Shown here piece by piece: positions 3,725-25,079 of a stretch of 27,024 nt of DNA. Both the position numbers and the translations under genes were made by a program. The notes under the pieces are model-generated. The model saw only the letters and a program-made list of their open reading frames with translations, was not told the DNA's origin and did not search any database. Position 1 is the stretch's first letter, and each line of letters starts with the position of its first letter. Source of the stretch: Hadesarchaea archaeon (lineage in GTDB: Archaea > Hadarchaeota > Hadarchaeia > Hadarchaeales > WYZ-LMO6); assembly GCA_029259185.1 (NCBI GenBank), contig JAPDJF010000044.1, positions 1 to 27,024 on the forward strand, in the 5' to 3' direction.

Positions 3725-3743
3725 TATCTTCACAAATACAAAT

Positions 3744-4854: not shown

Positions 4855-4855
4855 G

Positions 4856-5910: not shown

Positions 5911-5918
5911 TATATAGT
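5911..5918 (+). promoter_or_regulatory. Putative TATA box of the element's internal promoter
   Basis: TATATAGT lies about 25-29 nt upstream of GTG/ATG 5937/5940, with a purine-rich BRE-like sequence just upstream. Confidence 0.55.
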
Positions 5919-5939
5919 AGTTTGTAGTAACCTATTGTG

Positions 5940-6258: not shown

Positions 6259-6263
6259 TTCAC
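6138..6263 (+). ncRNA. Putative TnpB omegaRNA (reRNA) scaffold; the guide would be the flank from 6264
   Basis: GGG-ACGG-CCC hairpin; CCTG/CAGG and GATGGGGC(6165-6172)/GTCCCGTC(6214-6221) stems; CGGC-GCAA-GCCG tetraloop; terminal hairpin; potential GAAC/GTTC pseudoknot with the 3' end. Confidence 0.65.
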
Positions 6264-6265
6264 TG

Positions 6266-9118: not shown

Positions 9119-10356
9119 GGTTTCTCCCTTTCCACGATGGTAGCTATTCCTACTCCCCCGCCTCCACAGAGTGTTTGGAGTCCGTACCGCAGGTTCTTGC
9201 GTGCCATCCAGTGAACCATTTCCGTGAAGTAGAGGACACCTGTGCACCCGATTGGATGCCCAATGGATATTGCACCACCGGTTGGATTTATGCGCGGGTC
9301 ATCAAATGCCACACCGAATTCTTTACAGAACGCTAGTACCGGGGAGGCAAAGGCTTCGTTCGGTTCCCATACGTCGATATCGTCCATTTGAAGCCCTGCT
9401 CGGTTCAACGCTTTCTTCATGGCAGGTATAGGTCCCAAAAGCATGGTGACAGGGTCACTACCCGCTACCGCCATGGATTTTATCTTCGCCATGGGTTTTA
9501 GTCCCAGATCGTCCGCTTTTTCTCGTGTCATGAGCATGACTGCGGCAGCTCCGTCAACGATGGCAGAAGAGTTCCCTGCGGTAACGGTTCCACCTTCTTT
9601 GAACCCAGGCGGGAGAGCTTTCATTCGCTCATACGCGGTTTTGGGATCATCAAGTGCTTGGGCTCTGGGGGGTTCATCTGTCTCTACCATCACTTTTTCC
9701 CCCTCGCGTCCAACTTCTACTGGGACGATCTTTTTTTCGTACCATTCACGCTCCCTGATAGCCTTCACAGCTTTTTGATGACTCCAGAGACCGAATCTAT
9801 CTTGCTCTTCTCTGCTCAACTCGTACCGCTCGGCAACGATTTCTGCCGCTACACCCATCACGGTAAAGGCTCCCCTCTCCTCAGCGCGCTGATGGATTGA
9901 GACTGGGAAGCCAGCTTTCATTGCCGCCTCTAAATCAGACCCCATTGGATAATGACTCATGTGTTCCACCCCAGCTGCTATCGCTATTTCCCCACACCCA
10001 CTCATGAGGGCTTGTGCTTGGGAGTTTATAGCCTGGAGTCCAGCATTGCAATAACGGTTAACGGTCCAACCGCATACTTCGTCGGGCAAGTCAGCAGCTA
10101 GCACTCCTACCCTCCCTATGTTCAAACCTTGTTCTCCGATCTGGCTCAGACATCCCACGGCAACATCCTCTATCTCACGTTCATCGAATGCACCCGATTT
10201 CTCCTTTACACGGTCTGCAAGTCCCCTGAGTGCGGTGGCGAGCAGATGTTGGGCTGAAACTTCTGCGAACATACCTCTTTTTTTAGTTCCAGCCCACCCC
10301 GATTTGCCCGTAGGTGTTCTGACCGCCTCTACGACCACCACTTCTTTCAAGTCCAT
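9115..10356 (-). CDS. Thiolase (acetyl-CoA C-acyltransferase)
   Basis: VRTP.G, NRYC (nucleophile Cys), TAGNSS.IVDGAA, NEAFA, GHPIGCTG, LCGGGG.G. Confidence 0.95.
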   Translation of the reverse strand: MDLKEVVVVEAVRTPTGKSGWAGTKKRGMFAEVSAQHLLATALRGLADRVKEKSGAFDEREIEDVAVGCLSQIGEQGLNIGRVGVLAADLPDEVCGWTVNRYCNAGLQAINSQAQALMSGCGEIAIAAGVEHMSHYPMGSDLEAAMKAGFPVSIHQRAEERGAFTVMGVAAEIVAERYELSREEQDRFGLWSHQKAVKAIREREWYEKKIVPVEVGREGEKVMVETDEPPRAQALDDPKTAYERMKALPPGFKEGGTVTAGNSSAIVDGAAAVMLMTREKADDLGLKPMAKIKSMAVAGSDPVTMLLGPIPAMKKALNRAGLQMDDIDVWEPNEAFASPVLAFCKEFGVAFDDPRINPTGGAISIGHPIGCTGVLYFTEMVHWMARKNLRYGLQTLCGGGGVGIATIVEREKP

Positions 10357-10438
10357 TTTCTGAATAAGATCAAGACCCCTAGGTTTAGATTTTTTTCTCC
10401 TCTAGGAGCTAGGTAATTTCTGTTGTGGGTGTTGGGTT

Positions 10439-10990
10439 TCACTCCCACCATCGCTTGGATCTGGGCATAGCGATGATCTCTCGTACTTCAAGTCTCTTCT
10501 TCATGTCTCCATCAAGCATATCTTCAGGTGTTGCGGCCTTCAGGATCAATGCGGTATCGGCACCTCTCGCCGTTCCCCCTATCCCTATTACTTCCTCTCC
10601 GGGTCTTATAGCTCCCCTCTCCGTAGCCATTACCACCACCTCGACAGCAACTTTGAACCCTTGGCCCAACATGTAAAGAGCCTTCCTGAGTTCGAGGCCC
10701 ATTTTCCGGAAAATCGGAAAACAGTTTTCAAATATAATGACGTTTCTCTTTTCAAGTTCCTTTTTCGCTTTCTTTCTCAACCTTTTCATGGAGATAACTA
10801 CGATTTTGGTGTCTCCCTTCACGCGTTCAGCTAGTTGTAGAGCAGTTTCACCCGAATCGCTCGCGACCACGATTTTGTTGATTCCAGTTTCTTTTGCTCT
10901 TTTCACCACAGCGTTGATTACCTCATCAGTGTTCGCAGCTCCCGGTTTCTGAAAATAGATATCTCTCCTCTCCACTCGCTCCGGAACCAT
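10439..10990 (-). CDS. Pyruvate-kinase C-terminal-like domain protein (MTH1675-type, function unknown)
   Basis: YF.KPG..NT, IVVAS.SGETA, GQGFKVAVEV..MA...G, GIGGT.RGADTA, REIIAMP. ATG 10990 lies about 25 nt below a TTAATA box. Confidence 0.82.
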   Translation of the reverse strand: MVPERVERRDIYFQKPGAANTDEVINAVVKRAKETGINKIVVASDSGETALQLAERVKGDTKIVVISMKRLRKKAKKELEKRNVIIFENCFPIFRKMGLELRKALYMLGQGFKVAVEVVVMATERGAIRPGEEVIGIGGTARGADTALILKAATPEDMLDGDMKKRLEVREIIAMPRSKRWWE

Positions 10991-11181
10991 ACGCTCTTTT
11001 CTCAAAAGAATACGTATTAATCTTCCGTAGGGACCGTGGGTTCTTGGTGAGTTGGAGATTTGGGCTTTCCGCGATACGGAGAGTCACTAGATCGATTTGG
11101 GAGGGCCGAATGGTAGGTTTTTGGGAGAAGGCCTCCGCGAAGAGTTTTTTTCATGGGTTTTACAATCAGCTCGGTAGGTGA

Positions 11182-12354
11182 GTGGGTTCGATCCAGGATC
11201 TCCGGACATTGCTGGTCGTGGGTGTTAACACGAGACCCGTAGTTAAGTCCGCCAAAGCTCTCGGTTTAAAGGTCATCGCAGTAGATAGATTTTGCGATTT
11301 GGACCTCCTCTCTGTGGCCGATCGCGTTCTTCCTCCTGCCCCTCCCTCGCCGGGTAGCCATCCCGATTTTCTAAAGTTGAGTACTCAAGCTTTCGAGGCT
11401 TATGAGGTGGATGGTGTCATCCTCGCTTCAGGGGTTGAGCATGATGTCAAATTGCTCAAGGTGCTTACGAAACGCTCGAGAATACTGGGTAACGATTTGA
11501 GGAGGCTTAGGAGTTGCATGGAGAAAAAGTATTTTCGAATAGCCGAGAAAGTCGGAATCCCCTTTCCACCCACCGAGCGTGTTAATTCACTCGATCGAGC
11601 ACTCACGGTAGCGGAGGATATGGGGTATCCGGTAGTGGTCAAGCCTTCTTTTGGGGGAGGGGGAATAGGAATAAGATTGGCGAGATCGGAGATCGAGATG
11701 AAACAAGCATTTGAACACGCGATTTCCTTTGGGGATGGGAAATCCGTGTACGTACAGAAATATGTGGAAGGCACTGACATAAGCACAAGTGTTCTCTCCG
11801 ATGGAGAGCGTGCCAAGTGTTTGACAGTAAATGAACAGATAATCGGGAATGAGTTCCTCGCTTGCCCCCGACCGTTCGGATACTGTGGGGCAGTAGTGCC
11901 TTTTTCCACGAGAAGAGATGTGTTGAGGGAAGTACGGACATATTCAGAAGATATATGTGTGGAGCTAGGCCTCGTGGGAACGAACGGTGTGGATTTTGTT
12001 CTTTCTGACAGGCCGTACCTCATAGAGGTTAATCCAAGATTTCAGAGTACCATCGATTGCGTTGAGTTGGTACTCAGAATAAACCTCGTTGAGGAGCATC
12101 TTAGGTGGTGTGGTATGGAATCTAGAAGCTATGGGAAACCCCGGGGATTTTCCGTGAAGCTAATCCTCTATACCAAAAAGGACTTAGTAGCCCCTAGGCT
12201 CAGGGGGGTTCCAGGAGTCATCGACATACCTTGGGAAGGGCAGCGTATTCTAGCCGGGCGGCCGCTTTGCAGTGTTCTGGAGTTTGGAGAAAGGAGAGAG
12301 GAAGTTGTGGAGAGGGCTTATGAGAGGGCTGGCATTGTTTATTCTTTTTGTTGA
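11182..12354 (+). CDS. ATP-grasp carboligase (COG2232-like; C1-cofactor-cluster associated)
   Basis: G.NTRP...SA..LG...A.D.F.DLDL N-terminus, VVKP..GGGG.GI, Q.YVEG, GTNGVDF, IEVNPRFQ.T; AGGTGA RBS. Confidence 0.85.
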   Translation: MGSIQDLRTLLVVGVNTRPVVKSAKALGLKVIAVDRFCDLDLLSVADRVLPPAPPSPGSHPDFLKLSTQAFEAYEVDGVILASGVEHDVKLLKVLTKRSRILGNDLRRLRSCMEKKYFRIAEKVGIPFPPTERVNSLDRALTVAEDMGYPVVVKPSFGGGGIGIRLARSEIEMKQAFEHAISFGDGKSVYVQKYVEGTDISTSVLSDGERAKCLTVNEQIIGNEFLACPRPFGYCGAVVPFSTRRDVLREVRTYSEDICVELGLVGTNGVDFVLSDRPYLIEVNPRFQSTIDCVELVLRINLVEEHLRWCGMESRSYGKPRGFSVKLILYTKKDLVAPRLRGVPGVIDIPWEGQRILAGRPLCSVLEFGERREEVVERAYERAGIVYSFC

Positions 12355-13067
12355 ACTTTTTCAAGTTCTTCTCTCCCTATCCTTCCGCTGTGGAGAGCAG
12401 TGGCTACGAGTACCCCTGCTATTCCTATCTTTTGTAAGAACCTTAGATCCATCCCATGTCTCGTTCCACCGCCGGTAAGCAAGGGAACCGTGGCTATCCG
12501 AAGGGCTCTTTCGATTAGGGCGACATTCGGCCCCACGTTAGTTCCTACCCTATCGAGATTCAACAAAAGGATTTCCGATACTCCCGCGTCCTCGAAGTTT
12601 TGGATCACATTTGCGAGCGGTCTTTTTACCTCTTTAGATGAAGCCACGACCCTCCCCCCCTTCAGATCTATACTTCCTACCAAAGGACGCCCATAATCTA
12701 GAGCTTTCCTAACTTCTTCAAAGTTTTCAAGCGTTTCAGTAGCCATCACTATCTTGTTCGCTCCTCTTTCCACATAAGGTTCAATTTCTTTTGCCCTTCT
12801 GAATCCAGCGTCGACCATGAGCATGACGTTGGTCTCTTCGGACAATTTTTCTATTACTTGAAGGTTATTTCCGATGGATTCTATGGCATTGAGATCAGCC
12901 ACGTATACCTCTCTCAGTCCGAGATTCTCGAATGCCAGAACAATCGAGAGTGGATCAGGATCCGGTGTCAGAACACTTTTGACCGGCGCATACTCCTTCC
13001 TTCGTCCACCTACTGCGTGTACGGCGAGCCCATTCAGCAGGTCCACCACGGGTATTACTCTCATCAC
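12339..13067 (-). CDS. HisA/HisF-related TIM-barrel protein (Orf17-like, C1-cofactor linked)
   Basis: IPVVDL..G.AVHAVGG.R..Y.P, YVADLNAI, VDAG, ATETL, LDRVGT..GP, GGG.R, LVATALH.G. Confidence 0.88.
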   Translation of the reverse strand: MMRVIPVVDLLNGLAVHAVGGRRKEYAPVKSVLTPDPDPLSIVLAFENLGLREVYVADLNAIESIGNNLQVIEKLSEETNVMLMVDAGFRRAKEIEPYVERGANKIVMATETLENFEEVRKALDYGRPLVGSIDLKGGRVVASSKEVKRPLANVIQNFEDAGVSEILLLNLDRVGTNVGPNVALIERALRIATVPLLTGGGTRHGMDLRFLQKIGIAGVLVATALHSGRIGREELEKVQQKE

Positions 13068-13108
13068 ATCACTTTTCGAGATTCATGTTTCCAACAATTA
13101 GATCCGAT

Positions 13109-13756
13109 TCACAGAGAAATTTCTTTTGCTGGCCGGATTTGGGTACATACAGTTTTCTTTGAGGTTAACACACCCTTTATCCTGTTTGGATGCTTGCCGT
13201 TGACGATCCAACAAGTTATTCCTCCCTTCTCTAGTAGCCAAGATATTTCCTTGTCGACCACAGGTTGGTTCACCCTCTTTAGGTCTCCCGTGGTCAAAAG
13301 ATTTCTCCTTCTTCCCCCCACTCGGATCCCGTCGGTCATCTTCACCAAGATGAGTTTTTTGCACCCAACCCGCAGAGAAACCCATGCTGATATCGAATCC
13401 GAGGTGACGTCCCAGCATCTCTTAAGATCCTCACAGCGATCGAGTTCTCGGAAGGGGAGAAAGATTGTGCATCCTGAACTCAGACTTTCTAAAGATTCGG
13501 TGAGCCTCGATCCTTCGATGAGCTCATGCAGGACGATCCCGTAAACATTCATCGCGAGGAGGGCCACGGAGTGGGCAGTCTCGTCTGAGAACTTCAAGTC
13601 CTTTTGGAGCTTCCTTATCACCCTCGCAAGTCTCCCTCCGCCCGGAACCACGAGGATGTTGTATTCTTTCGAAACGGTAGCAAGGGTCATGCAGAGTTTC
13701 CTCAAGTCCTTCGGGTCGGCTTGGAGACTTCCCCCTATTTTTATTACGGCATCCAT
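13109..13756 (-). CDS. mfnE: [5-(aminomethyl)furan-3-yl]methyl phosphate kinase (amino-acid kinase family)
   Basis: VIKIGGSL, VPGGG.LA, AH..A..AM, WDVTSDSISAW, K.TDG; operon context with mfnB/D/F. Confidence 0.85.
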   Translation of the reverse strand: MDAVIKIGGSLQADPKDLRKLCMTLATVSKEYNILVVPGGGRLARVIRKLQKDLKFSDETAHSVALLAMNVYGIVLHELIEGSRLTESLESLSSGCTIFLPFRELDRCEDLKRCWDVTSDSISAWVSLRVGCKKLILVKMTDGIRVGGRRRNLLTTGDLKRVNQPVVDKEISWLLEKGGITCWIVNGKHPNRIKGVLTSKKTVCTQIRPAKEISL

Positions 13757-14754
13757 ATCGTGGCCTCTTGGGCTAGAACCCCTGCCCCCAACGCAGGTGT
13801 CATCACCGCACCACCTTCACCGTAGATCTCACCCAGATCCACGGTTTTCTTGAAGCCAGCCTTTCGTGCAGATTTTTCTGCTAAAATTTTTCTCCCTACC
13901 CCTGAGATCACGATCTCGGAGTCGTGTGGGATCCTGTATCGCCTTGCCACCTTGACGATCCCCTTAACGATGGATTTTATTTGTTCTTCGTGGAGAGCTC
14001 TAGCAGCCTTCACAATGAACTCTTTTCCGAGTTCCTCCAAGTCAGAACAGAAAATCCTCGCAATGCGCCGAGAACAACTTTCGACATCCTTCCCTCTTCC
14101 ATCGGGAGTCTCGCAGTTGTACTCTTTCTCTCCTATCATTCCCAACACCGTGTACACATCACCCATTATCGAAAAGTTTTCTGAGGCAGTCCCTACTCCT
14201 CTGATTTCCCGGAGCACACAGGTGGTGGGAGTACGTAGGATCCCGGTGTAGACTAGTTCCCCCCTCTTCAATCGTTGGAAATCCGTGCTCCCCAAATTGG
14301 CCACTTTTCCGCCCGCGATGGGGGTTATATCAGTAGTCGTGCTTCCGACATCCACGAAGAGACATTCCGGAAACTTTCTCTTCACGATTTCAGCGCTTGC
14401 TACCCAATTAGCAGCAGCGAGTTTTCGAGGTTCGTTTTTGGCCTTGTTGGATTTTAGCACCCTCCCATCGATCGTCACGAAAAAGCAGTGCTCTCCGAAC
14501 ACCCTCTCTACCTCCTTAACAATTTTTTTCGCACCGATAACTTTTGTTTTAAATACATCAGAGAGCTCTCCCGTCATCACAGCACCTATCACGCTCAGGT
14601 TTGGTATTCCAGCCAACTCTCTGAGGAAACCCTTCAGTCTCTCCCACTCCTTCCAAAGAGGGATGTAACGGATCGAATAGTCTATGATTTTCTCACCATC
14701 GAGCAGAATAGCTTTAGTGTTGGCTCCACCCACATCAATACCTAGAGAACGCAT
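13744..14754 (-). CDS. mfnF: MfnF, hydantoinase/oxoprolinase-family methanofuran biosynthesis protein
   Basis: GIDVGGANTK, PLWK, MTGELSD.F, AAANWVASA, DVGSTTTDI.P, GELVYTG.LRT, TPDGRGK. Confidence 0.92.
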   Translation of the reverse strand: MRSLGIDVGGANTKAILLDGEKIIDYSIRYIPLWKEWERLKGFLRELAGIPNLSVIGAVMTGELSDVFKTKVIGAKKIVKEVERVFGEHCFFVTIDGRVLKSNKAKNEPRKLAAANWVASAEIVKRKFPECLFVDVGSTTTDITPIAGGKVANLGSTDFQRLKRGELVYTGILRTPTTCVLREIRGVGTASENFSIMGDVYTVLGMIGEKEYNCETPDGRGKDVESCSRRIARIFCSDLEELGKEFIVKAARALHEEQIKSIVKGIVKVARRYRIPHDSEIVISGVGRKILAEKSARKAGFKKTVDLGEIYGEGGAVMTPALGAGVLAQEATIWMP

Positions 14755-15859
14755 CTACTCCAACTCCGAGTAGCCCCGATATTCTCTCCAGCGCATCTTT
14801 AATCTCCTTTTGGGCGTTGGTACTCTTCTTCCCAGATCCCGTCAGTACCATACGTGAGACCCTCCCCCTGCCGAAAGGTACAGGAGGTGTTACGAGCGCG
14901 CGGATCTCTTTTAACTCATCGAGCAGATTCCACTCCAACCCCCCACTTTTTCGGAGTGTGTATATCCTGATGACCGCGTGCCCCTTGAGGGTAGGTCTTT
15001 TGACTTCGATTCCTTCAAGCATTCCCTTTATCAGCATCTCAGCTAAGTTCTCTCGAATAACGCGGGTGAGTCCCACGAAGGACGTTGTGATTCTGGGGTT
15101 CATCTCTATGAAATATGGAGTTTTTCTTATGACCATGTCTACTCCGCAAAGTCCCCTCACGCCCAAGAGCTTCGCACTCTTGCTGGCCAAGGACTCACAT
15201 TCTCTCGACAAATGAGAATTCAACTCTAAAGGGATCCGGCTCCCCGAGTACCTGAATTCTCTCCCGCACACGAAGACTTCCTGTTCGTTGAGTGAAAGGG
15301 GGGTGACATGGTCGGTGACCATAAGGCAGCAACTGGCGTGGGTACCATTGATGAACTCTTGAAAAATTGTCTTTCCTGATCTTTTACCGTTAAAAAACTT
15401 GACACCAGTACTCCCCACCCCTCTAACGGGCTTAGCCACCGCTTTCTCGATGTTCGGTGGTTTCCTCCAAGTATTCGGTAGTCTCACCTCAGCTTTGAGT
15501 CTGAGGTACGTTGCCCACTTGTCACCTGAGAGCCGTACAGCTTTCCCATCACTTCCTAGCACTCGGATACCTTTCTTTTCAAACCATTCCGTTAGTTCAG
15601 CGAGTTTCGGTTCTGGTCCTATCAATAGGGCAGCATCTGGGTCAAAATGCAGCATCTCCAGCAACGAGCCTCGGACGATCTTTACTTCAGTATCGATTAA
15701 ACTGGCAAGCCTTTGGAATTTTTTGTGGAGGGGGGCCACAACATCGAAACCCGAATCTTTAAATTCTCTTACCATGGTTCTTAGGAAAGCGAACCCCTCT
15801 GGGAAGAGAGATAGTTCGCCTCCCAAGCCAGAGACGGTCTCTAGGATCAGTACCCGCAG
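14735..15859 (-). CDS. mfnD: ATP-grasp tyramine--L-glutamate ligase-like protein; probable CTG start
   Basis: EG.A.L.....F, IGPE, DKW.TY..L, KP..G.GS.G, QEFI.G.HAS, PLSLNEQ, GVD, IEMNPRITTS. The frame extends upstream to CTG 15859 (RVLILE), which is preceded by GGTGA. Confidence 0.82.
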   Translation of the reverse strand: MRVLILETVSGLGGELSLFPEGFAFLRTMVREFKDSGFDVVAPLHKKFQRLASLIDTEVKIVRGSLLEMLHFDPDAALLIGPEPKLAELTEWFEKKGIRVLGSDGKAVRLSGDKWATYLRLKAEVRLPNTWRKPPNIEKAVAKPVRGVGSTGVKFFNGKRSGKTIFQEFINGTHASCCLMVTDHVTPLSLNEQEVFVCGREFRYSGSRIPLELNSHLSRECESLASKSAKLLGVRGLCGVDMVIRKTPYFIEMNPRITTSFVGLTRVIRENLAEMLIKGMLEGIEVKRPTLKGHAVIRIYTLRKSGGLEWNLLDELKEIRALVTPPVPFGRGRVSRMVLTGSGKKSTNAQKEIKDALERISGLLGVGVDAFSRY

Positions 15860-15860
15860 C

Positions 15861-16571
15861 TCAGCTCACCAGTATCTCCTTGATTCTCTTCACGAGTTCG
15901 ACCGAGAGTTCTCCGTTCCTATCCCTTGAGATACACACAGCCCCCCGCACCCCCACTATATCGGGACCCAGAGATTTGATGGTTCGGATTTCATCAGGTC
16001 CTAATGAGCCTGAGAGCGCTATCTCGATCCCCAGAGAGTGCGCTTTTTCGACGATTTCCTTTAGCTCACTTTTCGATAAGAAATCTGTCAAGGGTTTTCC
16101 ATCCTTTATTCCCGTGTCAATCATCACTATCTCAGCATTTGCGATTTTTGCTACTTCGGGTAGGAGAAAAGGTTCAATGGTGTTTGTTCTTTCGAAGTCT
16201 CCATAGCCACATACCACAACTTTCACCTTCTTCGAAGAAAGCTTGGCAGCCCTCACAACTTGTTTCATCAAGTGAGCGGCATCTTCCAGTCTCCTCGGTC
16301 CTTTTAACCCTACTTTCACGATATCGGCACCAGCCTCGATGGCCCCGAGGGTTGCCAGTGATGCACTTCCGGGTAAGTCGGGGAAATCACCTATCGCGGC
16401 ACTGATCGGAACATAGGCGGGGATCGACTTTTTCGTTTCCGAGATGATCCACGGAAAGCTGGCACCTAGAGAGCCCTCCTTTGGGTTCTTGATATCGATG
16501 ATATCCGCCCCTCCTCTAAACGCTTTTATCGCCTCGTGAGCACTGGTTGAGCTGATCAGGAGTAGGGTCAA
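15861..16571 (-). CDS. mfnB: (5-formylfuran-3-yl)methyl phosphate synthase
   Basis: LLIS....EA..A..GGADIIDIKNPKEGSLGA.FPW, SAAIGD, KVGL, MIDTGIKDG, ALSGSL, DIVGVRGAVC. Confidence 0.95.
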   Translation of the reverse strand: MTLLLISSTSAHEAIKAFRGGADIIDIKNPKEGSLGASFPWIISETKKSIPAYVPISAAIGDFPDLPGSASLATLGAIEAGADIVKVGLKGPRRLEDAAHLMKQVVRAAKLSSKKVKVVVCGYGDFERTNTIEPFLLPEVAKIANAEIVMIDTGIKDGKPLTDFLSKSELKEIVEKAHSLGIEIALSGSLGPDEIRTIKSLGPDIVGVRGAVCISRDRNGELSVELVKRIKEILVS

Positions 16572-16702
16572 GCTCTCACTTCACAGTCTCAAGAAATGTA
16601 AGTCCATGAGTATTATTTAATCCCGTTGGTAGTTTCCTCCTATGGATTTCATCATTCACGATAAAGCGGAGCCTTTATTCCCCACCCCTTGGAGAGATTT
16701 AG

Positions 16703-17707
16703 ATGCTCATAGATATCACTCTCCCACCCCTCCCTTGGGATGAGATTCCGGAGCATGCCAGAAAAGCGGAAGAAATAGGATTTGACTGCATATGGATGGG
16801 GGAGACCAGTCGTGATCCTTTCATTCCTTTGGCGTTAGCAGCGGAGCATACCAAAAGGATAAAAATCGGGACTTCTGTTTGTGTGGCTTTTCCGAGGAGC
16901 CCAATGACTGTGGCTTATACAGCTTGGGATCTCCAAACCCTCTCTCATGGGCGTTTCGTGTTAGGACTTGGTACCCAGGTGAGGGGGCACATGGAAAGAC
17001 GTTTCAGCGTGAGGTGGGATCCACCTGGATCAAAAATGCGAGAATACGTTTCAGCTCTGCGGACTATATGGGATTGCTGGCAGAATGGAAGACCTTTAAA
17101 CTTCCGTGGAGGGTTCTATAATTTCAGTTTGATGACACCGTTTTTCGATCCTGGTCCCATAAAGTATCCCCATATTCCAATACACTTAGCTGGAGTTAAT
17201 CCATACATGTGTCGACTCGCCGGGGAAGTGTGTGATGGTCTTCACATCCATCCTTTCCATTCCCCCAAATATGTGAAAGAGGTCGTGTTGCCGAATATCG
17301 AGAAGGGTTTGAGAGAATCCGGAAGAAAACGCAAAGATGTCCAGCTGGTCGCTGGAGTCTTCATAGTTACGGGAGGGAGTGAAGAAGAAATAAGGCAAAC
17401 GGAGGAGTACATACGATTTCAGATAGCCTTCTACGCTTCCACCAAAACGTACAAAAAAGTCATGGAGCTTCATGGTTGGGGGGAAATCTCGGAGAGGTTG
17501 TATAGAAAATCTTTGAAGGGAGATTGGGCCTCGATGGCTGGGGAAATTACAGATGACATCTTTGAAACCTTTGCGGTCAAGGGGAAGCCACACGAAGTGA
17601 TCGAGGAAGTAAAAAATAGACACCGCGGGTTAGCGGACAGGCTGATATTGTATCCAATACCGGCTCTGGCTCACCTAGAAACCTCCATGTGGGGGGAGGT
17701 GATTTGA
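16703..17707 (+). CDS. LLM-class, probably F420-dependent oxidoreductase (TIGR03617/MSMEG_2256-like)
   Basis: ET.RDPF.PL.LAAEHT, VAFPRSPM..A..AWDLQ..S.GRF.LGLGTQVRGH.ERRFS, LMTPFF.PGP, H.HPFHS, QIAFYAST..Y. Confidence 0.9.
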   Translation: MLIDITLPPLPWDEIPEHARKAEEIGFDCIWMGETSRDPFIPLALAAEHTKRIKIGTSVCVAFPRSPMTVAYTAWDLQTLSHGRFVLGLGTQVRGHMERRFSVRWDPPGSKMREYVSALRTIWDCWQNGRPLNFRGGFYNFSLMTPFFDPGPIKYPHIPIHLAGVNPYMCRLAGEVCDGLHIHPFHSPKYVKEVVLPNIEKGLRESGRKRKDVQLVAGVFIVTGGSEEEIRQTEEYIRFQIAFYASTKTYKKVMELHGWGEISERLYRKSLKGDWASMAGEITDDIFETFAVKGKPHEVIEEVKNRHRGLADRLILYPIPALAHLETSMWGEVI

Positions 17708-18171
17708 GTTTTGACCGCCCGTCTAGTGTTCAAACGTTTCTCCATCTCCACCCATCCCCCTACCTTCTTTTTCTTTTTGAATCCAAACTTTTTGAACAGA
17801 CTCATAGACGGACGGTTCGATTCCAAGATTCTAACTCTTACCACGCTACGGTTATCGGATCTGAGTCTCTTCAATTCTTCCCCGAGCAGTTTCTCACCCA
17901 CCCCTTTCTCCCTGTATACGGGATGGACAGCGATTTGATAGATCCACACATCACCCTCCAAACTGGGGAATCCTACTATGAACCCTATCACTTTGTCATC
18001 GTGAAGAGCTAGGAGGAAATATCTTTTGAAGCCGAGCACCATGTATTCATAAGTCCCTTTTACGGATGCTCTGAGGGGCTGACATATCTTAGCCAATCTC
18101 TCCACAGCTTCGGCATCACTCTCTCTAGCCTCCCTTAGCTGGTATTCGGTAGTTTTTCCGATCCTGCTCAC
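17671..18171 (-). CDS. GNAT N-acetyltransferase, EctA-like N-terminus
   Basis: QIAVHPVYREKGVG acetyl-CoA motif and N..S..LFKKFGF. The GTG start overlaps the comDE stop (GTGA). Confidence 0.88.
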   Translation of the reverse strand: MSRIGKTTEYQLREARESDAEAVERLAKICQPLRASVKGTYEYMVLGFKRYFLLALHDDKVIGFIVGFPSLEGDVWIYQIAVHPVYREKGVGEKLLGEELKRLRSDNRSVVRVRILESNRPSMSLFKKFGFKKKKKVGGWVEMEKRLNTRRAVKTQITSPHMEVSR

Positions 18172-19298
18172 GAGATCGCCTTCATGAATCTCTTTTTTAT
18201 CTCCACGGGTGTTAGCGGGATGTTTTTCACTCTCGCGTTTCCCGGCTTTATCAAGACGTGGATAAATTTCGGTCCGTCCTTCTCGTGTATCCTTTCCATA
18301 ACGGATTCTAACTCTCTTTTCGTTTGTGCGTGGTAGGTTAGCTTTATGTTCGCACTAATGGCTACTAGTTCCATGTCGATATCAGAGTATGCACACGTGG
18401 GTTGGTCTCCCGTGCTTCCGAAGGTTCCGTTGTCCAGACAAATTACAGAAAGATTTTCAGGTTTCTCGATTCCGATTATAGGGAGCACATTCGATCCAAG
18501 CAAACTGCCATCACCGTCCAAGACTATCACATCCCTCTTCACTTTTAAAGAAATTCCGAGGCCTATCGAGGAAGCTTGGGTGTAGCTACCGAGCATATAG
18601 AAATTGAGATCCCTGTCCCGGAGGTGATATAGTTCCTTGCTTGGTACTCCTATGTTTGAGATTACGATCTCTTCGTCCAAGTGCTTCACTATGGTTTTTA
18701 TGGCCTCGTATCGCGTCATCTCCGGCTCGCGCGTGCTTTTTCGGTATTGAAGATTAACCTCCATCTTTCTGGGAGGAAAGGTTTGGTTCACTTCATTCGT
18801 GTCCTCTTTCTCCCAGACCTTCGGAGAGATTAAAACAATGAATGGGGTATTCTCTTCGTAGGCCCTTTCGATAGCTTCTTCGAGCAGGTCTATCTGGGAT
18901 CTTTCCAGTACCGTTAGGTACGGGATCTTCCAAGCCTCAAGAGCTCTAGGGAGATCCTTATTGAATGGTATCTGGGCAGGTATTTTTTCCTCGTAGATCC
19001 CTCTCCAACTCGCGATCACGGGAATCGGAAGCTCGTACGCAACTGACAGGGAGAGCAGAGCATTAAAGCAGTTGCCGAGCCCTGAACTCTGGATGACTAG
19101 AGCTGGTTTTCCTCCCCCCAAATATGCACCCGCACATATTCCTACTCCGTCCTCCTCCTTGTTAAGAGAAATGATGTGGAAAGATGAATCCGCACCGAGG
19201 AGGGAGATGAGGGTTTTGATTCGCTCACACGGTAGGATCGGAATGATGTCGATCTCGTGCTTCTTCATTATGTCCACGACTCTATTCCCTACGGACAT
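18168..19298 (-). CDS. comDE: Sulfopyruvate decarboxylase, fused alpha/beta subunits
   Basis: Alpha part: LPC, EEDGVGICAGAYLGG, IQSSGLGN..NAL.SL, SWRG.Y.EKIPAQ. Beta part: MTRYEAI, NIGVPSKELY, NFYMLGS, TPP motif DGDGS...DNG..GSTGDQ. Confidence 0.95.
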   Translation of the reverse strand: MSVGNRVVDIMKKHEIDIIPILPCERIKTLISLLGADSSFHIISLNKEEDGVGICAGAYLGGGKPALVIQSSGLGNCFNALLSLSVAYELPIPVIASWRGIYEEKIPAQIPFNKDLPRALEAWKIPYLTVLERSQIDLLEEAIERAYEENTPFIVLISPKVWEKEDTNEVNQTFPPRKMEVNLQYRKSTREPEMTRYEAIKTIVKHLDEEIVISNIGVPSKELYHLRDRDLNFYMLGSYTQASSIGLGISLKVKRDVIVLDGDGSLLGSNVLPIIGIEKPENLSVICLDNGTFGSTGDQPTCAYSDIDMELVAISANIKLTYHAQTKRELESVMERIHEKDGPKFIHVLIKPGNARVKNIPLTPVEIKKRFMKAIS

Positions 19299-20559
19299 CT
19301 CTCCACCATTCCCTTAGACTAGACTCAATTTCTTCTATTGGAGTATCCCATCTCATCCTCAAATCAGGTTCGATTTCAATTATCGCCAAATCCTCTTTCA
19401 CCCTGTCATATCCTCCCCCACTGATGTTCAGTAATACCTTCTCATCCTTCCCCACTTTTCCCATTTCGACAGCTTGCAGGAGGGACGCAACGCACACCGA
19501 AGCAGCGGGATCGAGGTCTATCCCTTCTACCCCCTCAAATAATTTTTCGGCGTTTACAGCTTCCTCATTCGTTATCCCGTACATCTCCCCTCCCGTCTCA
19601 TGCAAGACATCGTAAACACCTCCCCTTAGGGAATAGGGGGGGTTCCGGTTGGACAGGACGCTCGCGTACATATTCTCTATTGCGTCACCAGCGTTCGGTA
19701 GGTCCACGTCAGGAACTATCTCCTTTCTCCCGGCCCTCCAGGCCCGAAACATGGGTGCGAAGGGAATGTTTTGGGAGAGGTGGAGCCTCGGCAATTTCTT
19801 CCCGAATCTCCCGTCGTTGAGCACCCTTTTCGAGGCTTCAAACACCGCTATCGCTCCCACCCCACTCCCCACTGCTTGGAAGTAGTGGTCGGGCAACCTC
19901 CCAATCGTTAAGATAGAGTCTAATAACAGGGTTCCCATTCCATCTCTCCTGGCCACATTCCGCACGCCTCCTTCGAAAACCATTCCTTCTAAGCTAGCGA
20001 TTCTCTCCCCGAGCTTGATGGTGTCCGTGTAGTCACCTTCAACTGATATCAGCAAGCATGTGGGGGTTGGTTCCACCACACTCCACATCCGGAAGACGTA
20101 TTGTTTGGGTACGAGAACCACCACCGGAGAACCCGTTAGATAAGAAATATGCGCGAAAGCCCTCCCTGTGTTACCGGCTGACGGTATCACCGGAATCTTT
20201 TTGCTTCTTTCCGTCAGCCTCGGAAATGTCGCAGCAGCCTCCAGTTCCTTGAATGAACAAGTTCTGATCCGTGCTTCTCTCTCCGGCCAGTAACCGCTGA
20301 AGCTTATGTAGAGTTCAGGGAGCCCTAGTTCTTTTCCAAAACCTTCACTCTTGTAGGTAATGGGAGCGGTATCTATGTCGATGGGATTTTCGGCTGGCAA
20401 CCAATCGATGAACTTCCACATTCCCGGCAGGTTTTTCACACAGAACTTCTTCGTTTCGTATTCACTGACCAAGAGGGAATCATGGTGGGGACATCGGTTG
20501 GTGAACTCATCTTTGATTCTTCTACCACACTCTAAACATCTCAGGACGTACTTCCCCAT
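19282..20559 (-). CDS. Cysteate synthase (PLP, threonine-synthase-like)
   Basis: FSGYWPE, TCSFKELEA (PLP Lys), SAGNTGRAF, EGG.RNVARRDGMGT, YFQAVGSG.G, VLSNRNPPY; adjacent to comDE. Confidence 0.93.
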   Translation of the reverse strand: MGKYVLRCLECGRRIKDEFTNRCPHHDSLLVSEYETKKFCVKNLPGMWKFIDWLPAENPIDIDTAPITYKSEGFGKELGLPELYISFSGYWPEREARIRTCSFKELEAAATFPRLTERSKKIPVIPSAGNTGRAFAHISYLTGSPVVVLVPKQYVFRMWSVVEPTPTCLLISVEGDYTDTIKLGERIASLEGMVFEGGVRNVARRDGMGTLLLDSILTIGRLPDHYFQAVGSGVGAIAVFEASKRVLNDGRFGKKLPRLHLSQNIPFAPMFRAWRAGRKEIVPDVDLPNAGDAIENMYASVLSNRNPPYSLRGGVYDVLHETGGEMYGITNEEAVNAEKLFEGVEGIDLDPAASVCVASLLQAVEMGKVGKDEKVLLNISGGGYDRVKEDLAIIEIEPDLRMRWDTPIEEIESSLREWWRDVRRE

Positions 20560-20564
20560 GTGGA

Positions 20565-21818
20565 TTACTCCAAACGGGCCACGGGGTTTGCCAGTAGGAA
20601 CTTCCTCCTTATGATCATCCTTTTTAGCATGGAGGCCAACTCCTCCGCTCTCTCCCTGTTTGATTGTCTCAATGTTATGGGAATTTCCTTTCCCCCGATC
20701 TCTATTCTACCCAAGTTCCCTTCGAATGCACCGTTTGGACACAGGCGCACACAGGCTCCACAGTTAAAACACTTACTTTCATCAATACCTTCCCCTTTCC
20801 TGAAAGCCTTGGTCGGACAGTATTTCTGGACCTCACACACTTCATGTTCCTGACATTTGCGGGGATTGAATCTTATCTTCAGATCCGTGTTCTTCCAAAC
20901 TTTTCCGTAGTCGCTCTCTGTGAAGGGGACCCTATCGTGGATATCAGCTATGGGTAGGCCCACCTCCTCGTCTGTCTTCTCCAAATTCGAGAATATTTTT
21001 TCATCCAAGACGGGGATCGGGATAGCTATCGAAGTCACACATTCAGGGCCGCTGGACGTTACGAACCCACCCATGAGTTCAGGACTCATCCCATGCATGT
21101 CAGCAACCACTGACAGATTCGGTCTCTGGACAGAACTCCTAGTTCCCTTGCTCAGCACATATCCAACTGCTCCGTTAACGAGTACCTTGGTTCCAACTCC
21201 GATCGTCTGGAGGTGGGGATCATTTTCAAGAGGATTTATCTCTCCGCACCCGCTTACAGATATCTCCTCATATGGCCCTCTTAGTCCCATCACGGAGAAG
21301 ATACTCTTTACTTTACCCTTTTTCGTGTTGAGGAATCCCATATAATTCCTGAATGAGCTCCTAGTCGTGAGAAGTTTTGCGAATCCCAGTTCACTGATCG
21401 TCACTTTCTTTCGAAATACCTTGCCGTCAGCCTTCACCTTGACTTCCACCCTCTTACCTTCGACGAGTTCCCTGAACAAGTGTCCGCCTCCGTACTCTTG
21501 AGGTTTCGATTCCGAGCGAGCAGTCCCGTACACTATCACATCTACGATTCCGAGCCTCTCGTTTGGACATGGACCCGGAAACGCGGGCACATCGTTGATC
21601 CACACCTCATCAGCCCTTTCGAATTTCCCCCCCCTCGTTATGGGTATGGAAAGGATAGCGGCGGTTCCAGACATCAATCCGCATGTAGCGGTGGTCACCA
21701 CATCCACATCTTCGGCGCGAGTTTTTTTCTTCCTGACCCTCTCTTTGAATTCTCTTGCGGTTAGAACTACGGCTTTGCCGCTCTCTATCTTCTCATTTAT
21801 GTCTTCTATTGTTTTCAA
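20565..21818 (-). CDS. Methanogenesis marker 16 metalloprotein (DUF39/HcyBio domain + ferredoxin); candidate coenzyme M synthase ComF
   Basis: KTIEDINEKI..GKAVVLTA.E, DVVTTAT.G.MSGT, GPCPNERLG..D, YGGGHLF, SGCGEINPLEND, GGF.TS.GPEC, C-terminal CFNCGACVRLCP. The probable start is TTG 21818 after GGAGG. Confidence 0.88.
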   Translation of the reverse strand: MKTIEDINEKIESGKAVVLTAREFKERVRKKKTRAEDVDVVTTATCGLMSGTAAILSIPITRGGKFERADEVWINDVPAFPGPCPNERLGIVDVIVYGTARSESKPQEYGGGHLFRELVEGKRVEVKVKADGKVFRKKVTISELGFAKLLTTRSSFRNYMGFLNTKKGKVKSIFSVMGLRGPYEEISVSGCGEINPLENDPHLQTIGVGTKVLVNGAVGYVLSKGTRSSVQRPNLSVVADMHGMSPELMGGFVTSSGPECVTSIAIPIPVLDEKIFSNLEKTDEEVGLPIADIHDRVPFTESDYGKVWKNTDLKIRFNPRKCQEHEVCEVQKYCPTKAFRKGEGIDESKCFNCGACVRLCPNGAFEGNLGRIEIGGKEIPITLRQSNRERAEELASMLKRMIIRRKFLLANPVARLE

Positions 21819-22050
21819 CTTCCCTCCCCCAACTGATTTTCTCCCACGATCTCTCGTGTAGATAGTAACAGATAATCTTCGTAGAAGCATCGAGTCCACC
21901 TATGGCTCCGGAGAGAGGAACATCGTGGGTTAAAGTTAGTGCGATAATGAATGTTATCAGAGTGGCTATCGACCGCCAAGATAAAGTCTTAGCTACAGAT
22001 CTGCGTTTGGAGTCTATGCTCTTCACGGAGAGTCTTCTAGGATTGGACAT
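21793..22050 (-). CDS. DUF2061-family small membrane protein
   Basis: RRSVAKTLSWR..ATL.T and K...YYLHER.W..I.WG signatures. Confidence 0.88.
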   Translation of the reverse strand: MSNPRRLSVKSIDSKRRSVAKTLSWRSIATLITFIIALTLTHDVPLSGAIGGLDASTKIICYYLHERSWEKISWGREVENNRRHK

Positions 22051-22054
22051 CGAC

Positions 22055-22798
22055 TCACTTCAAATTTCGGGTGTGGATCCCGCATTCCCCCCCACATTTA
22101 CTCGTTCCGAACCACCTTCCTTCTCTTTCTTGTTGCCAATCGTAAATAGGAACTGTACACGGCTCGCAACCCAGTGACCTGATCCGTTTGCCCCCGGGGA
22201 AGATTTTAGTATACCAAGGGTGCAGCTCAATGCCGTTGCGCTTCAAATACCTCAACACATCCTGCTCGGTCCAGTTTAGTATCGGATTAACTTTTACCAA
22301 ACCCCTGAATTCTATCTCTTTCACTCCCGTTCTCGTCCTCCCCTCGGTGTTTCTTAGTCCACATATCCATGCATCAAGATTTTTGACGGCTTCTCTTGCT
22401 GGGTTCACTTTCAGTAGCTCACAACACTTGTCTGGGTCTACCTCGTAGATCTTCTTTCCATATTTTCTCTCGACTTCTGATTGAGCGGCTTCGAACTCAT
22501 CGGTGGGTAGCAACACAGTTTTCACCCCATGTTCCTTCAGCACAGGAGGAACCTCTTTGGCCACGATGTACACGGTGGTGTTCAATCCCATTTTTTCGTT
22601 CATTTTCACAAGATATTCAAAAGTTTCACGTGGTTTGAATGGGGTCATTATGGAGAAAACTGGTATGTCTGGGTCAACCTCTCGAGCTAGATGGACGGTT
22701 GCCATGCTGTCTTTCCCGAAAGAGCAGGCTACAGCTATCCTTGGATATCTCTCTACAGCAGTTTTTATCAACTCTTTTGAGAGTTCTTCTTTGTCCAT
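22055..22798 (-). CDS. cysH: APS/PAPS reductase (CysH), [4Fe-4S] APS-reductase type
   Basis: SFGKDS PP-loop, CC...K, WI.GLR, KVNPI..WT, SLGCEPCT, REGRW, C-terminal ECGIH. Confidence 0.92.
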   Translation of the reverse strand: MDKEELSKELIKTAVERYPRIAVACSFGKDSMATVHLAREVDPDIPVFSIMTPFKPRETFEYLVKMNEKMGLNTTVYIVAKEVPPVLKEHGVKTVLLPTDEFEAAQSEVERKYGKKIYEVDPDKCCELLKVNPAREAVKNLDAWICGLRNTEGRTRTGVKEIEFRGLVKVNPILNWTEQDVLRYLKRNGIELHPWYTKIFPGGKRIRSLGCEPCTVPIYDWQQEREGRWFGTSKCGGECGIHTRNLK

Positions 22799-22801
22799 TT
22801 C

Positions 22802-22862
22802 ATTCTATTATTTTGGGGAAAATAGAATAAAAAATTTTAGCTAGTTTTCACAATAGTGAAAA
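22802..22862 (-). promoter_or_regulatory. AT-rich promoter of the cysH-comDE operon with two perfect inverted repeats
   Basis: ATTCTATT-N11-AATAGAAT (22802-22828) and TTTTCAC-AATA-GTGAAAA (22845-22862) flank a minus-strand TTTTTATT TATA-like element about 30 nt upstream of the cysH ATG. Confidence 0.5.
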
Positions 22863-22869
22863 TTTTGAT

Positions 22870-24414
22870 TCAAAAAATCTCTTCCTCTTGTATGTACCCT
22901 CTCCCCGTTTTCAGAGCTATTTCAGCTTTCTGTAGTTCCCTCCCAAGATACGCGGCGTGGACGGGATCTTTCACGAGTCCTCTTCCCAATATCTCATGAC
23001 ACAGGGTTTCGGATTTCTCTCCTTTAAATACAATCTCGGGTTTCCTCCCTTCGTACAAAATAACCACTATTTCCCCCTCGGAAACGTATATTCTAAAAAA
23101 TCGACCACTCTCCATTTTGAATCTTTTTCTTTCCGGTGGTGGTCGGGCTCGAACGACCTTAGTAGATCCCTCGATTTTCTTGTCGTATCTCTCGAATATC
23201 CTTCTTTTTTCCTTGAGGATTAGCATGTCTATCCCCAAGTCTTTGGGAACGGATTTTCGCCACTTGGCTAACGTGATGATGTCTCTCGCCCTCCTGAGTT
23301 CAAAGACGTTTCCCCTCGTTTTGTCGCTGGCTTCGACCGTGAGGAGAATACTTACCTTAAGTTCACAGGCAGCACCGGCTAGGAGGGCCGTCATGCCGAT
23401 CGAGTCCGCGTCGCACAGCTCCACAACGTTTCCTACTCCCATGAGCAGAGGAAGATCTGGCTCTCGCTCCCTGACCGCTGAGAAAGTGGTGAGTGAGGCC
23501 ACGAAACCCATGTTTAGGGGCTCGATGATCGGATCCGCTATAACTCTCTTAAATCCAAGTTTTCTGGCTTTTTTGACCAGTTCCAAGAGGTCCTTACACC
23601 TTTCCCTCGGGGATCTCTTCCTCCTCGGGACGAGGACGACGGGCACATCGAGGCCCTCGAACTTCTCCACGCCTTCCCAGCTTAAACTGAGGATGAGATC
23701 GGCCCCGCTATCGACGGCACTCTTGATCTCTTTGAGGTTCATCGTGTCTATACTCACTGGTACCCCGAATTTTTCTTTCAGGAGGGAAACGAGCCTCCCA
23801 GCCTTTTCAGGTTCTTCCCTCCCCCCCACCATCCCAACATCCAATATCTCAGCACCTTCCTTCAAGTATCGCCTAGCCATCTTTATCACTTCCTCTTCTG
23901 GAAGGGATGGGGCATCAGGGATTTCAGCCATCACGCGCGGAGGGAATTTTCCCCCAATCCCTATCGCTGATTTTCCTTCACCGATGAGGAAGCTTGATGG
24001 CTCCCGCATGTCCCGCAACGCCTCTCTTTCGATCTCCTGGAGAATTTTGGAGGTAGCCTTTTCTATCTCGGACTTGAGGAGTTTGCATGCGGGAACTTTT
24101 TTAGAGAGCTCGATTCTCTCTAAATTATCCAGAACGACTGGCAGATCGGCCGCATGTTTCGGTCCTCGGTAGACTGGAACCCCAGTTTCTCTTTCAATTT
24201 CAGACGGGTCAAAGAGAACTAGGCCAGGGACGAGAATCATCCGGTACTCGTTCAAATCGAGTTTTCTAATTTCCTTGATTGCAGTTTTTGGATCGATGAA
24301 GGTGGCGACCGGGGTCGGTATTACCAGAGTTTCCGTTTCTACCCGGCTTTTGTCAGAGTATTCTTTCACCAGTGGAGCGGCGAGCTTCCCTGTAATCAAG
24401 AGGATTTTTTTCAT
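22870..24414 (-). CDS. Dihydropteroate-synthase-like protein (MJ0107/Orf20-like) with C-terminal DUF4346-like domain
   Basis: ILLITGKLA, GPKHAADLP, AEI.DAP, ILDVG, PVSIDT, IADPI.EP, GVGNV.EL.DADS.G, C-terminal HAAYLGREL.KAE.AL..G..Y.QE. Confidence 0.9.
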   Translation of the reverse strand: MKKILLITGKLAAPLVKEYSDKSRVETETLVIPTPVATFIDPKTAIKEIRKLDLNEYRMILVPGLVLFDPSEIERETGVPVYRGPKHAADLPVVLDNLERIELSKKVPACKLLKSEIEKATSKILQEIEREALRDMREPSSFLIGEGKSAIGIGGKFPPRVMAEIPDAPSLPEEEVIKMARRYLKEGAEILDVGMVGGREEPEKAGRLVSLLKEKFGVPVSIDTMNLKEIKSAVDSGADLILSLSWEGVEKFEGLDVPVVLVPRRKRSPRERCKDLLELVKKARKLGFKRVIADPIIEPLNMGFVASLTTFSAVREREPDLPLLMGVGNVVELCDADSIGMTALLAGAACELKVSILLTVEASDKTRGNVFELRRARDIITLAKWRKSVPKDLGIDMLILKEKRRIFERYDKKIEGSTKVVRARPPPERKRFKMESGRFFRIYVSEGEIVVILYEGRKPEIVFKGEKSETLCHEILGRGLVKDPVHAAYLGRELQKAEIALKTGRGYIQEEEIF

Positions 24415-25079
24415 CAGGTCACCTGGTTCATCATGGCTTTCAGGGATTCGGCGATTTCTGCGATGATAGCGGACTCTTCAGAACTCGGGGCTATATGGTC
24501 GCACAACCTTTTATACTCCTCAATCTTTCCGAGTCTTCGTTTGGCCTCTTCCGTCTTTCCTCCCTCGATAGCCTTCATCACTTTGGTCGCGAGCACAGCG
24601 GATTCGATCAAGAAGAAATCCGATCTCTTGAACGGTCGAACGAATGGCTTAGCCACTTCTATTTTTTTTACGGTTAACGTTATGTAAGCTATCTCAGATT
24701 CACCCAACTCATCCGAAAGCTTTTCTTTTGTGATCTCTTTCACCTCCAGGTCTGCGTACGCTGGGAGACCAATCACCCGGGGAGCGTTCACCATTTTTGA
24801 TCGTGCGAATTTGAGTTGGTTTTCGCTAAATCCCAACAGTTTTTTGAGGGCGATCCTCACGAGAAGTTTTGCGTCCTCCGTGAGGTTAATGGTAGCCCCC
24901 TTCCACTTCTCAAGATTTCGAAAGGTGTGTGTATCGGTGAAAACCTTCACCCCCACCTCAAGCTCTCCCACTTTCCTAACACCAACTACTGCTGCGTGGG
25001 GTAACCCATCCGGGTTAAATGTTGATATTATCACTTCGGCCGGATGCCAAGTTAATCCGATCTCATCAAGAGAGCTCAT
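24414..25079 (-). CDS. DUF447-family protein
   Basis: EVIIST.N.DG.PHAA..GV, F..THT..NL, IN.T.D, R....LIE..V.AT; adjacent to the DHPS-like gene with a 1-nt overlap. Confidence 0.85.
   Translation of the reverse strand: MSSLDEIGLTWHPAEVIISTFNPDGLPHAAVVGVRKVGELEVGVKVFTDTHTFRNLEKWKGATINLTEDAKLLVRIALKKLLGFSENQLKFARSKMVNAPRVIGLPAYADLEVKEITKEKLSDELGESEIAYITLTVKKIEVAKPFVRPFKRSDFFLIESAVLATKVMKAIEGGKTEEAKRRLGKIEEYKRLCDHIAPSSEESAIIAEIAESLKAMMNQVT

Follow-up and report, generated by a model that had tools for sequence, protein, structure and literature searches.

A cysH gene at the head of a predicted coenzyme M biosynthesis operon in a Hadesarchaea archaeon

The locus and its six genes

The subject of this work is a 27,024-nucleotide stretch of DNA from a Hadesarchaea archaeon (contig JAPDJF010000044.1 of assembly GCA_029259185.1), called the window below, and within it a compact array in which cysH, encoding a predicted adenosine 5′-phosphosulfate (APS) reductase, precedes genes for the biosynthesis of coenzyme M (CoM). 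The window is contig C18 of genome G000, a 1.27-Mb assembly of 54 contigs that is 94.9% complete. Between positions 17671 and 22798, six open reading frames (ORFs) lie head to tail, all on the minus strand. The features of the array, from its 5′ end, are as follows.

22799–22869, minus strand: candidate archaeal promoter region, a 71-nt AT-rich spacer 5′ of cysH, read by eye
22055–22798, minus strand: CysH, 247 amino acids, first gene; PF01507 at 133.2 bits (cut-off 22.5) and NF002537 at 163.1 bits (cut-off 154)
21793–22050, minus strand: DUF2061 small predicted membrane protein, 85 amino acids; PF09834 at 66.2 bits
20565–21818, minus strand: marker 16 metalloprotein (ComF, coenzyme M synthase); TIGR03287 at 522.7 bits (cut-off 363.95); PF01837 and Fer4 domains
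19282–20559, minus strand: cysteate synthase (CS); TIGR03844 at 597.2 bits (cut-off 324.9)
18168–19298, minus strand: ComDE, fused sulfopyruvate decarboxylase; TIGR03845 at 192.3 bits (cut-off 147.95) and TIGR03846 at 237.3 bits (cut-off 221.5)
17671–18171, minus strand: GNAT acetyltransferase; PF00583 at 54.8 bits
17611–17616, minus strand: candidate archaeal terminator, a T6 run about 55 nt past the GNAT stop, read by eye

The genes are closely packed. A gap of 4 nt separates cysH from DUF2061 and one of 5 nt separates marker 16 from CS, while ComDE and GNAT overlap by 4 nt and CS and ComDE by 17 nt. The longest ORF for marker 16 is 20565–21899, beginning with GTG 21899; the start is likely to be TTG 21818, since GGAGG precedes this TTG and the alignments of relatives start there. 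The overlap between DUF2061 and marker 16 is 26 nt with TTG 21818 and 107 nt with GTG 21899. The array has the properties of a single operon, being confined to one strand, with short gaps or overlaps and with a promoter-like spacer, judged by eye, solely at the 5′ end. That spacer is preceded by a T6 run, likewise read by eye, that closes the upstream dihydropteroate-synthase-like gene, and the T6 run at 17611–17616 falls within the 3′ end of a convergent gene for an F420-dependent LLM oxidoreductase. The array is not an assembly artefact, since it is supported by contigs of another sample and another study: contig X4, from another sample, covers 17000–22632 with 10 differing letters over 5.6 kb, and the junction of DUF2061 and cysH is crossed by contig X5, which comes from another study. 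We infer that the six genes constitute one CoM biosynthesis unit and are co-transcribed.

An earlier, preliminary description of this DNA had listed the same six same-strand genes, and all six ORFs are where it placed them. It had also put every overlap or gap at 5 nt or less, which is right for cysH/DUF2061, marker 16/CS and ComDE/GNAT, and wrong for the longer overlaps of CS/ComDE (17 nt) and DUF2061/marker 16 (26 nt). Its remark that the operon contains no sulfite reductase or cysteine synthase gene is borne out. The cysteate-synthase, or Methanosarcinales-type, CoM pathway that it recognised in the trio of marker 16, CS and comDE is represented by all three proteins, each above the curated cut-offs.

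The CysH protein

The best solved relative of CysH is the iron–sulfur APS reductase of Mycobacterium tuberculosis, 7lhr. Residues C125 and C126 (the CC pair), C211 and C214 (CxxC) and C239 (in ECGIH) align with cysteines of 7lhr (GCaPCT, ECGLH) and are invariant in all 27 aligned relatives; the CC and CxxC ligands of [4Fe-4S] APS reductases had already been pointed out in the preliminary description. The cluster-less 3′-phosphoadenosine 5′-phosphosulfate (PAPS) reductases of yeast and Escherichia coli lack these cysteines at the corresponding alignment columns. In the alignment, residues 238–242, the ECGIH motif itself, correspond to ECGLH in 7lhr and to ECGIH in 2oq2. Among the NCBIfam models, CysH exceeds the cut-off of NF002537 (phosphoadenylyl-sulfate reductase; 163.1 against 154 bits) and is under that of TIGR00434 (cysH; 146 against 165.1 bits).

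The clade to which CysH belongs has one cysteine more, placed four residues ahead of the catalytic one, in the motif KCGGECGIH (residues 235–242 region; alignment A2). This residue is kept in archaeal, bacterial and Heimdall members of the clade, the outgroup having ECGLH only, and a role as resolving cysteine is conceivable.

In the tree, the window CysH falls within a 98/98-supported clade of 12 sequences that are otherwise proteins of another archaeal class. Moving outward, there follow one long-branched metagenome sequence, a bacterial group (Dehalococcoidales, Planctomycetota) and a Heimdallarchaeota group. In the bacterial members, cysH lies between a sulfite reductase gene and a gene for an enzyme dependent on pyridoxal phosphate (PALP), read as cysteine synthase. 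Since the bacterial members occupy this context, the clade appears to be a genuine family of sulfite-producing reductases. Judged by motifs, alignment and tree, CysH is probably an assimilatory, thioredoxin-type [4Fe-4S] APS reductase, possibly acting on PAPS instead, and a thioredoxin gene is found in G000.

Linkage of cysH to CoM genes in other genomes

The class of G041, 79 genomes in all, to which the closest named relative belongs (record title "Methanosarcinales archaeon"), served as the comparison class. It contains mcrA, the gene for the alpha subunit of methyl-coenzyme M reductase (Mcr), in 54 genomes, some with three to four copies, and marker 16 in 51. Orthologous CysH is present in 12 of the 79, with 67–75% identity over full-length matches; the orthologue of G113 consists of two contig-end fragments, with 69% and 61% identity.

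All 12 loci were compared, and in six of them cysH is directly upstream of marker 16. Three of the six (G109, G072 and G077) have the order cysH–marker 16–CS, with a TauE/SafE transporter gene between CS and ComDE in G072. The order in G104 is cysH–marker 16–ComA–ComB–ComDE, and G083 and G049 have cysH–marker 16 only. A seventh genome, G111, has a CoM gene adjoining cysH on the other side, as ComB–cysH.

The same partnership occurs at a greater evolutionary distance. In a metagenome-assembled genome of Heimdallarchaeota (G042; L030, 7914–9984), cysH is directly followed by CS, which scores 489 bits against a cut-off of 324.9. A ComDE-like gene (220 bits) was found there too, but a search for marker 16 gave none. 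The pair suggests that chemistry leading from sulfite to cysteate or sulfoacetaldehyde exists outside the Mcr archaea. A metagenome scan with CysH gave 10 loci, two of which are cysH–CS, the remainder being short or of bacterial type. A cysH–CS pair is seen also at L055 and L056.

In at least two archaeal phyla, cysH is linked to CoM genes, with either CS or ComA; the preliminary description had proposed a search of archaeal genomes for cysH beside CS or comDE. ComA and CS are unrelated enzymes whose common substrate is sulfite. Since the same cysH precedes either of these sulfite users, its product is likely to be meant for them, and we regard this as the strongest argument for a function of CysH in CoM synthesis.

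In one pair of genomes, G104 (L043) and G055 (L042), the CysH sequences are nearly identical (branch lengths 0 and 0.004) and the contexts differ, cysH being followed in G104 by the CoM genes given above and in G055 by unrelated ORFs. This contrast suggests that the gene moved recently or that contigs were wrongly binned.

Sulfite reductase, sulfate activation and Mcr

No sulfite reductase of the NIR_SIR family was found in G000 or in any of the six genomes of its family, and such a gene is present in only 4 of the 12 orthologue-bearing genomes, with none found in the other eight. Since G000 lacks a sulfite reductase, sulfite made by CysH would not be bound for sulfide, and the branch would serve sulfonate formation.

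In the comparison class, Sat occurs in five of the 79 genomes. A CysD-like gene is present in 22, namely in 8 of the 12 with cysH and in 14 of the 67 others; it was not found in the four remaining orthologue-bearing genomes, G041, G049, G055 and G112. The CysD-like proteins score 180–233 bits on TIGR02039, and one copy exceeds the cut-off of NF003587 (327 against 195). At each of the three loci examined in orthologue-bearing genomes, a CysN-like GTPase gene follows the CysD-like gene; a phosphodiesterase-family gene comes after the pair at two of these loci, and a TauE transporter gene precedes it at one. The CysD–CysN module of these three orthologue-bearing genomes, with TauE, can probably make APS.

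One genome of the class, G054, joins this module to CoM genes (L070, G054:C14:54000-70000, approximately 3300–12100). A contiguous array on one strand encodes, in order, an iron–sulfur protein with CCG domains, marker 16, ComA, ComB, two small ORFs, TauE, a CysD-like protein, a CysN-like protein and a phosphodiesterase-family protein. No other of the 22 CysD-like loci lies near marker 16 on one contig, and a cysH orthologue is absent from G054. The CCG protein, which is HdrD-like, is a candidate for the reduction of APS in this genome.

A paralogue of EF-1alpha in G000 (G000:C20:4175-5416, L066) was considered as a hidden CysN and rejected, its score being 622 bits for EF-1alpha, above the cut-off, and 247 bits for CysN, below it. 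The other EF-1alpha copy of the genome, on contig C5 beside rpS10 (701 bits), likewise scores as EF-1alpha and not as CysN. The 242-residue protein encoded upstream of the C20 copy could be assigned to none of the known families; it resembles a helical protein anchored in the membrane and not a PP-loop enzyme.

Two MCR_alpha (mcrA) matches were obtained in G000, with 85.6 and 83.2 bits, at C38:269–649 and C13:272–646. Both begin about 270 nt from the start of the contig, which probably reflects breaks of the assembly within or close to a pair of similar mcr operons.

A proposed role for CysH and the evidence against it

No archaeon that metabolises methane or alkanes by means of Mcr can do without CoM, and both known routes to this cofactor begin with free sulfite. 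Mcr archaea inhabit reduced, sulfidic settings, and, to our knowledge, the source of the sulfite for CoM has never been established. We propose that in G000 CysH would reduce APS, or possibly PAPS, to sulfite, which CS would join to phosphoserine to yield cysteate. An aminotransferase encoded outside the operon would then give sulfopyruvate, ComDE would convert this to sulfoacetaldehyde, and marker 16 (ComF) would produce CoM. On balance, we consider it probable that CysH feeds sulfite to CS for CoM: the gene identities, the motifs, the packing of the array and the recurrence of the linkage are facts of the genomes, and the activity of CysH, the co-transcription of the genes and the flow of sulfur are inferred from them.

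Several findings weigh against this proposal. Five of the 12 orthologue loci have no adjacent CoM gene: in G041 and G055 cysH is at a contig edge and then come unrelated genes, in G110 it is on a 5.9-kb contig without CoM genes, and in G112 and G113, likewise in G166 from a 401-genome phylum sample, cysH–DUF2061 is followed by a PycB-like gene. Three of the orthologue-bearing genomes, G041, G110 and G112, show no marker 16 over the search threshold, and 45 of the 51 marker-16 genomes of the comparison class have no cysH beside marker 16. Moreover, related genomes are non-independent samples. The protein itself is under the cut-off of TIGR02055 (APS_reductase; 125.1 against 235.3 bits). With respect to the substrate, Sat (PF01747) has no match in the 94.9%-complete G000, in the six genomes of its family or in the 12 orthologue-bearing genomes. 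The sole PAPS_reduct (PF01507) match in G000 is cysH, so that G000 is without CysD, and a tblastn search with a CysD-like protein hits cysH alone; for APS kinase, the only match in G000 is an unconvincing P-loop-like one of 20.7 bits. No known enzyme route to APS or PAPS was found in G000. Finally, none of the five sister-genus genomes has a cysH orthologue, and three of them carry a marker 16–CS–ComDE–GNAT operon without cysH or DUF2061. Since the sister genus and most marker-16 genomes have no adjoining cysH, the gene appears to be dispensable for CoM synthesis.

These results alter the preliminary description, in which the operon was said to be self-contained from APS to CoM, with Sat encoded elsewhere in the genome. 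The operon is not self-contained, since the source of APS in G000 is unaccounted for by known enzymes, and no Sat was found for the genome to supply. Inability of the genome to make APS had been named there as evidence against the idea, and as far as known enzymes go this is what we find. Of the genes it singled out for a search of the genome, mcr is represented by the two matches described above, sat is absent from the matches, and cysC is represented by nothing better than the weak P-loop-like match. The central suggestion, that APS reduction supplies the sulfonate sulfur of CoM, gains strong support from the comparison with other genomes, with linkage to both kinds of sulfite user, and from the lack of a sulfite reductase in G000; with the source of APS missing, the preliminary reading as a whole is supported in part.

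Origin of cysH and alternative explanations

The phylum of G000 comprises 66 species genomes of 0.6–2.2 Mb. No CysH orthologue was found in the 65 others (nor in any of the 40 of a narrower search), and true CS was found only in G000, in three sister-genus genomes and in a single further member of the order. Since no relative in the phylum has cysH and the sister-genus operon exists without it, cysH, probably with DUF2061, looks like a horizontal add-on. By this comparison, it is most likely that an older marker 16–CS–ComDE–GNAT operon gained cysH, or cysH–DUF2061, by horizontal transfer.

A foreign origin raises the question of whether the gene is in use at all. cysH, along with DUF2061, could have come from a donor with CysDN and lie intact and idle in G000, where the sulfite for CoM would be environmental or from some other source, as in the sister genus. 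The isolated occurrence of CysH in the phylum (0 of 65), the cysH-less CoM operon of the sister genus, the lack of Sat and CysD in G000, the position of the protein in a 98/98-supported clade with another class and the TauE-family match in G000, which is only partial, would all agree with such a history. Evidence against an idle gene comes from a full-length ORF that keeps all the invariant residues of the family, that is promoter-proximal with only 4 nt before the next gene, and that lies in an array recovered from a second sample with just 10 differing letters over 5.6 kb. Furthermore, a CysH without a CysD-like partner is recurrent and not an accident, since four other orthologue-bearing genomes show the same, even if incomplete assemblies could explain some of them. 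We therefore hold this explanation to be unlikely. Less likely still is that CysH has an altered chemistry, with a substrate or partner other than APS and thioredoxin (for example another sulfonucleotide, or a resolving cysteine in its own tail), or that it acts together with marker 16 in sulfur insertion and does not feed CS. It is true that the commonest neighbour of cysH is marker 16, which is not a sulfite user (6 of 12 loci), that the extra cysteine of KCGGECGIH is conserved and that G000 yielded no source of APS. But bacterial members with the same tail are in a classical context, with sulfite reductase and the enzyme read as cysteine synthase, every ligand of the APS reductases is retained, and in Heimdallarchaeota cysH is paired with CS in a genome where marker 16 was not found. 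On these grounds we regard an altered chemistry as improbable.

As for ordinary assimilatory sulfate reduction to cysteine or sulfide, with the position of cysH in the operon incidental, membership of the CysH family and the role of the bacterial clade members would suit it. It is nevertheless close to refuted, since G000 and its family have no NIR_SIR protein (0 of 6), neither Sat nor CysD was found in G000, and cysH is repeatedly linked to CoM genes, in several distinct arrangements.

We retain the proposal that CysH provides sulfite for CoM synthesis. It is tempting to go further and to suggest that many Mcr archaea have a branch without sulfite reductase, dedicated to carrying oxidised sulfur to sulfite solely for the CoM sulfonate; where our searches gave CysH without Sat or CysDN (G000, G041, G049, G055 and G112), the substrate would come from an unrecognised family of sulfate-activating enzymes or be another sulfonucleotide, and DUF2061 might take part in the missing step. 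Taken together, these suggestions are speculative, and we think it unlikely that they hold.

Companion and neighbouring genes

DUF2061 adjoins cysH or lies near it in G112, G113, G166, a Dehalococcoidales locus and a Bacteroidetes locus. A complex prediction for CysH (alignment A2) with DUF2061 (alignment A1) gave a score of 0.00, which is no evidence either way. In three genomes, cysH–DUF2061 is followed by a gene for a PycB/OadA-like biotin carboxylase subunit (L044, 551–3355; L049, 2–2664; L068, 6298–9109), and in G111 (L046, 3855–6927) ComB–cysH is followed by a carboxyltransferase gene. Copies of the GNAT gene, 57–60% identical, follow ComDE at all three sister-genus loci examined; 13 loci of the comparison class gave no match to it.

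Other cofactor genes surround the CoM operon, as seen from the ORFs scanned in 11182–17707 and 22870–25079:

11182–13756: ATP-grasp, HisA-like and amino-acid-kinase-family ORFs, neighbours of the operon
15861–16571: MfnB, neighbour of the operon
16703–17707: F420-dependent LLM oxidoreductase, convergent to the operon
22870–24414: dihydropteroate-synthase-like TIGR00284 protein, directly upstream neighbour of cysH
24414–25079: DUF447, neighbour of the operon

Among the 10 ORFs scanned in 1–14800, there is no sulfur-activation gene. An Rfam scan of the window gave zero matches, and positions 3725–4855, about 1.1 kb, have neither an Rfam match nor an ORF of at least 110 amino acids.

Comparison with known systems

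The presence of cysH in CoM operons joins two puzzles, the source of the sulfite for CoM and the role of the archaeal APS/PAPS reductases, and the pairing points to the origin of the CoM sulfonate sulfur in a small archaeon of methane/alkane type. It raises the hypothesis of a path from sulfate through APS and sulfite to CoM, for which one genome, G054, has CoM genes that run into TauE–CysD–CysN, and it exposes a sharper gap, the CysH-bearing genomes without known APS-making enzymes.

Compared with the bacterial [4Fe-4S] CysH proteins (M. tuberculosis 7lhr, Pseudomonas aeruginosa 2goy), the window CysH shares the PAPS_reduct fold family, the CC and CxxC motifs and the C-terminal ECG(L/I)H. Strong alignment is confined to the C-terminal part of about 140 residues (82.9 bits), and the window protein adds the conserved cysteine of KCGGECGIH and a 6-residue insertion ahead of CxxC. 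Its gene is encoded beside CoM genes, not beside a sulfite reductase.

In Methanosarcina acetivorans, MA3297–MA3299 form the same contiguous set of CS, ComDE and marker 16, and, as far as the accessible text describes it, CoM is made by the CS route with marker 16 as CoM synthase (PMC12068725). The window adds CysH and DUF2061 in front of this set and GNAT behind it. The words sulfite, cysH, PAPS and APS reductase do not occur in the accessible text of that article. According to the available portions of two reports, methanogens and anaerobic methanotrophic archaea (ANME) carry APS/PAPS reductase genes of unexplained role, often without sulfate-activating genes (PMC6286981, PMC10322725). Methanothermococcus thermolithotrophicus, a methanogen, is likewise an archaeon with enzymes of sulfate reduction, where, in the accessible part of its description, Sat, APS kinase, a dissimilatory-type PAPS reductase and Fsr lead to sulfide (PMC10322725); in G000, by contrast, a CysH-type enzyme is encoded in a CoM operon and no Sat or sulfite reductase was found.

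We found no paper that joins CS and cysH or describes the present arrangement, and, among the papers listed, none that mentions phosphosulfolactate synthase alongside such a reductase, in a search of literature other than supplements and subscription journals; within that scope, the preliminary description's impression that the six-gene arrangement was new is upheld. The closest precedent is the work of Yu et al. (2018; PMC6286981). In its accessible text, APS/PAPS reductase homologues are reported in ANME and methanogens whose genomes lack sulfate activation; some Methanosarcinales are said to have a second APS reductase, of bacterial type, and ANME-1b one that is left unclassified. The authors speculate that such reductases “may be important for” CoM, which carries a +4 sulfonate. 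The idea of a CoM operon extended by a sulfite-generating step thus appears to have been foreshadowed, and the genomic evidence for it appears to be undescribed. In the accessible text of Yu et al., the link to CoM is a suggestion made without gene-neighbourhood evidence, whereas here it takes the form of genomic adjacency.

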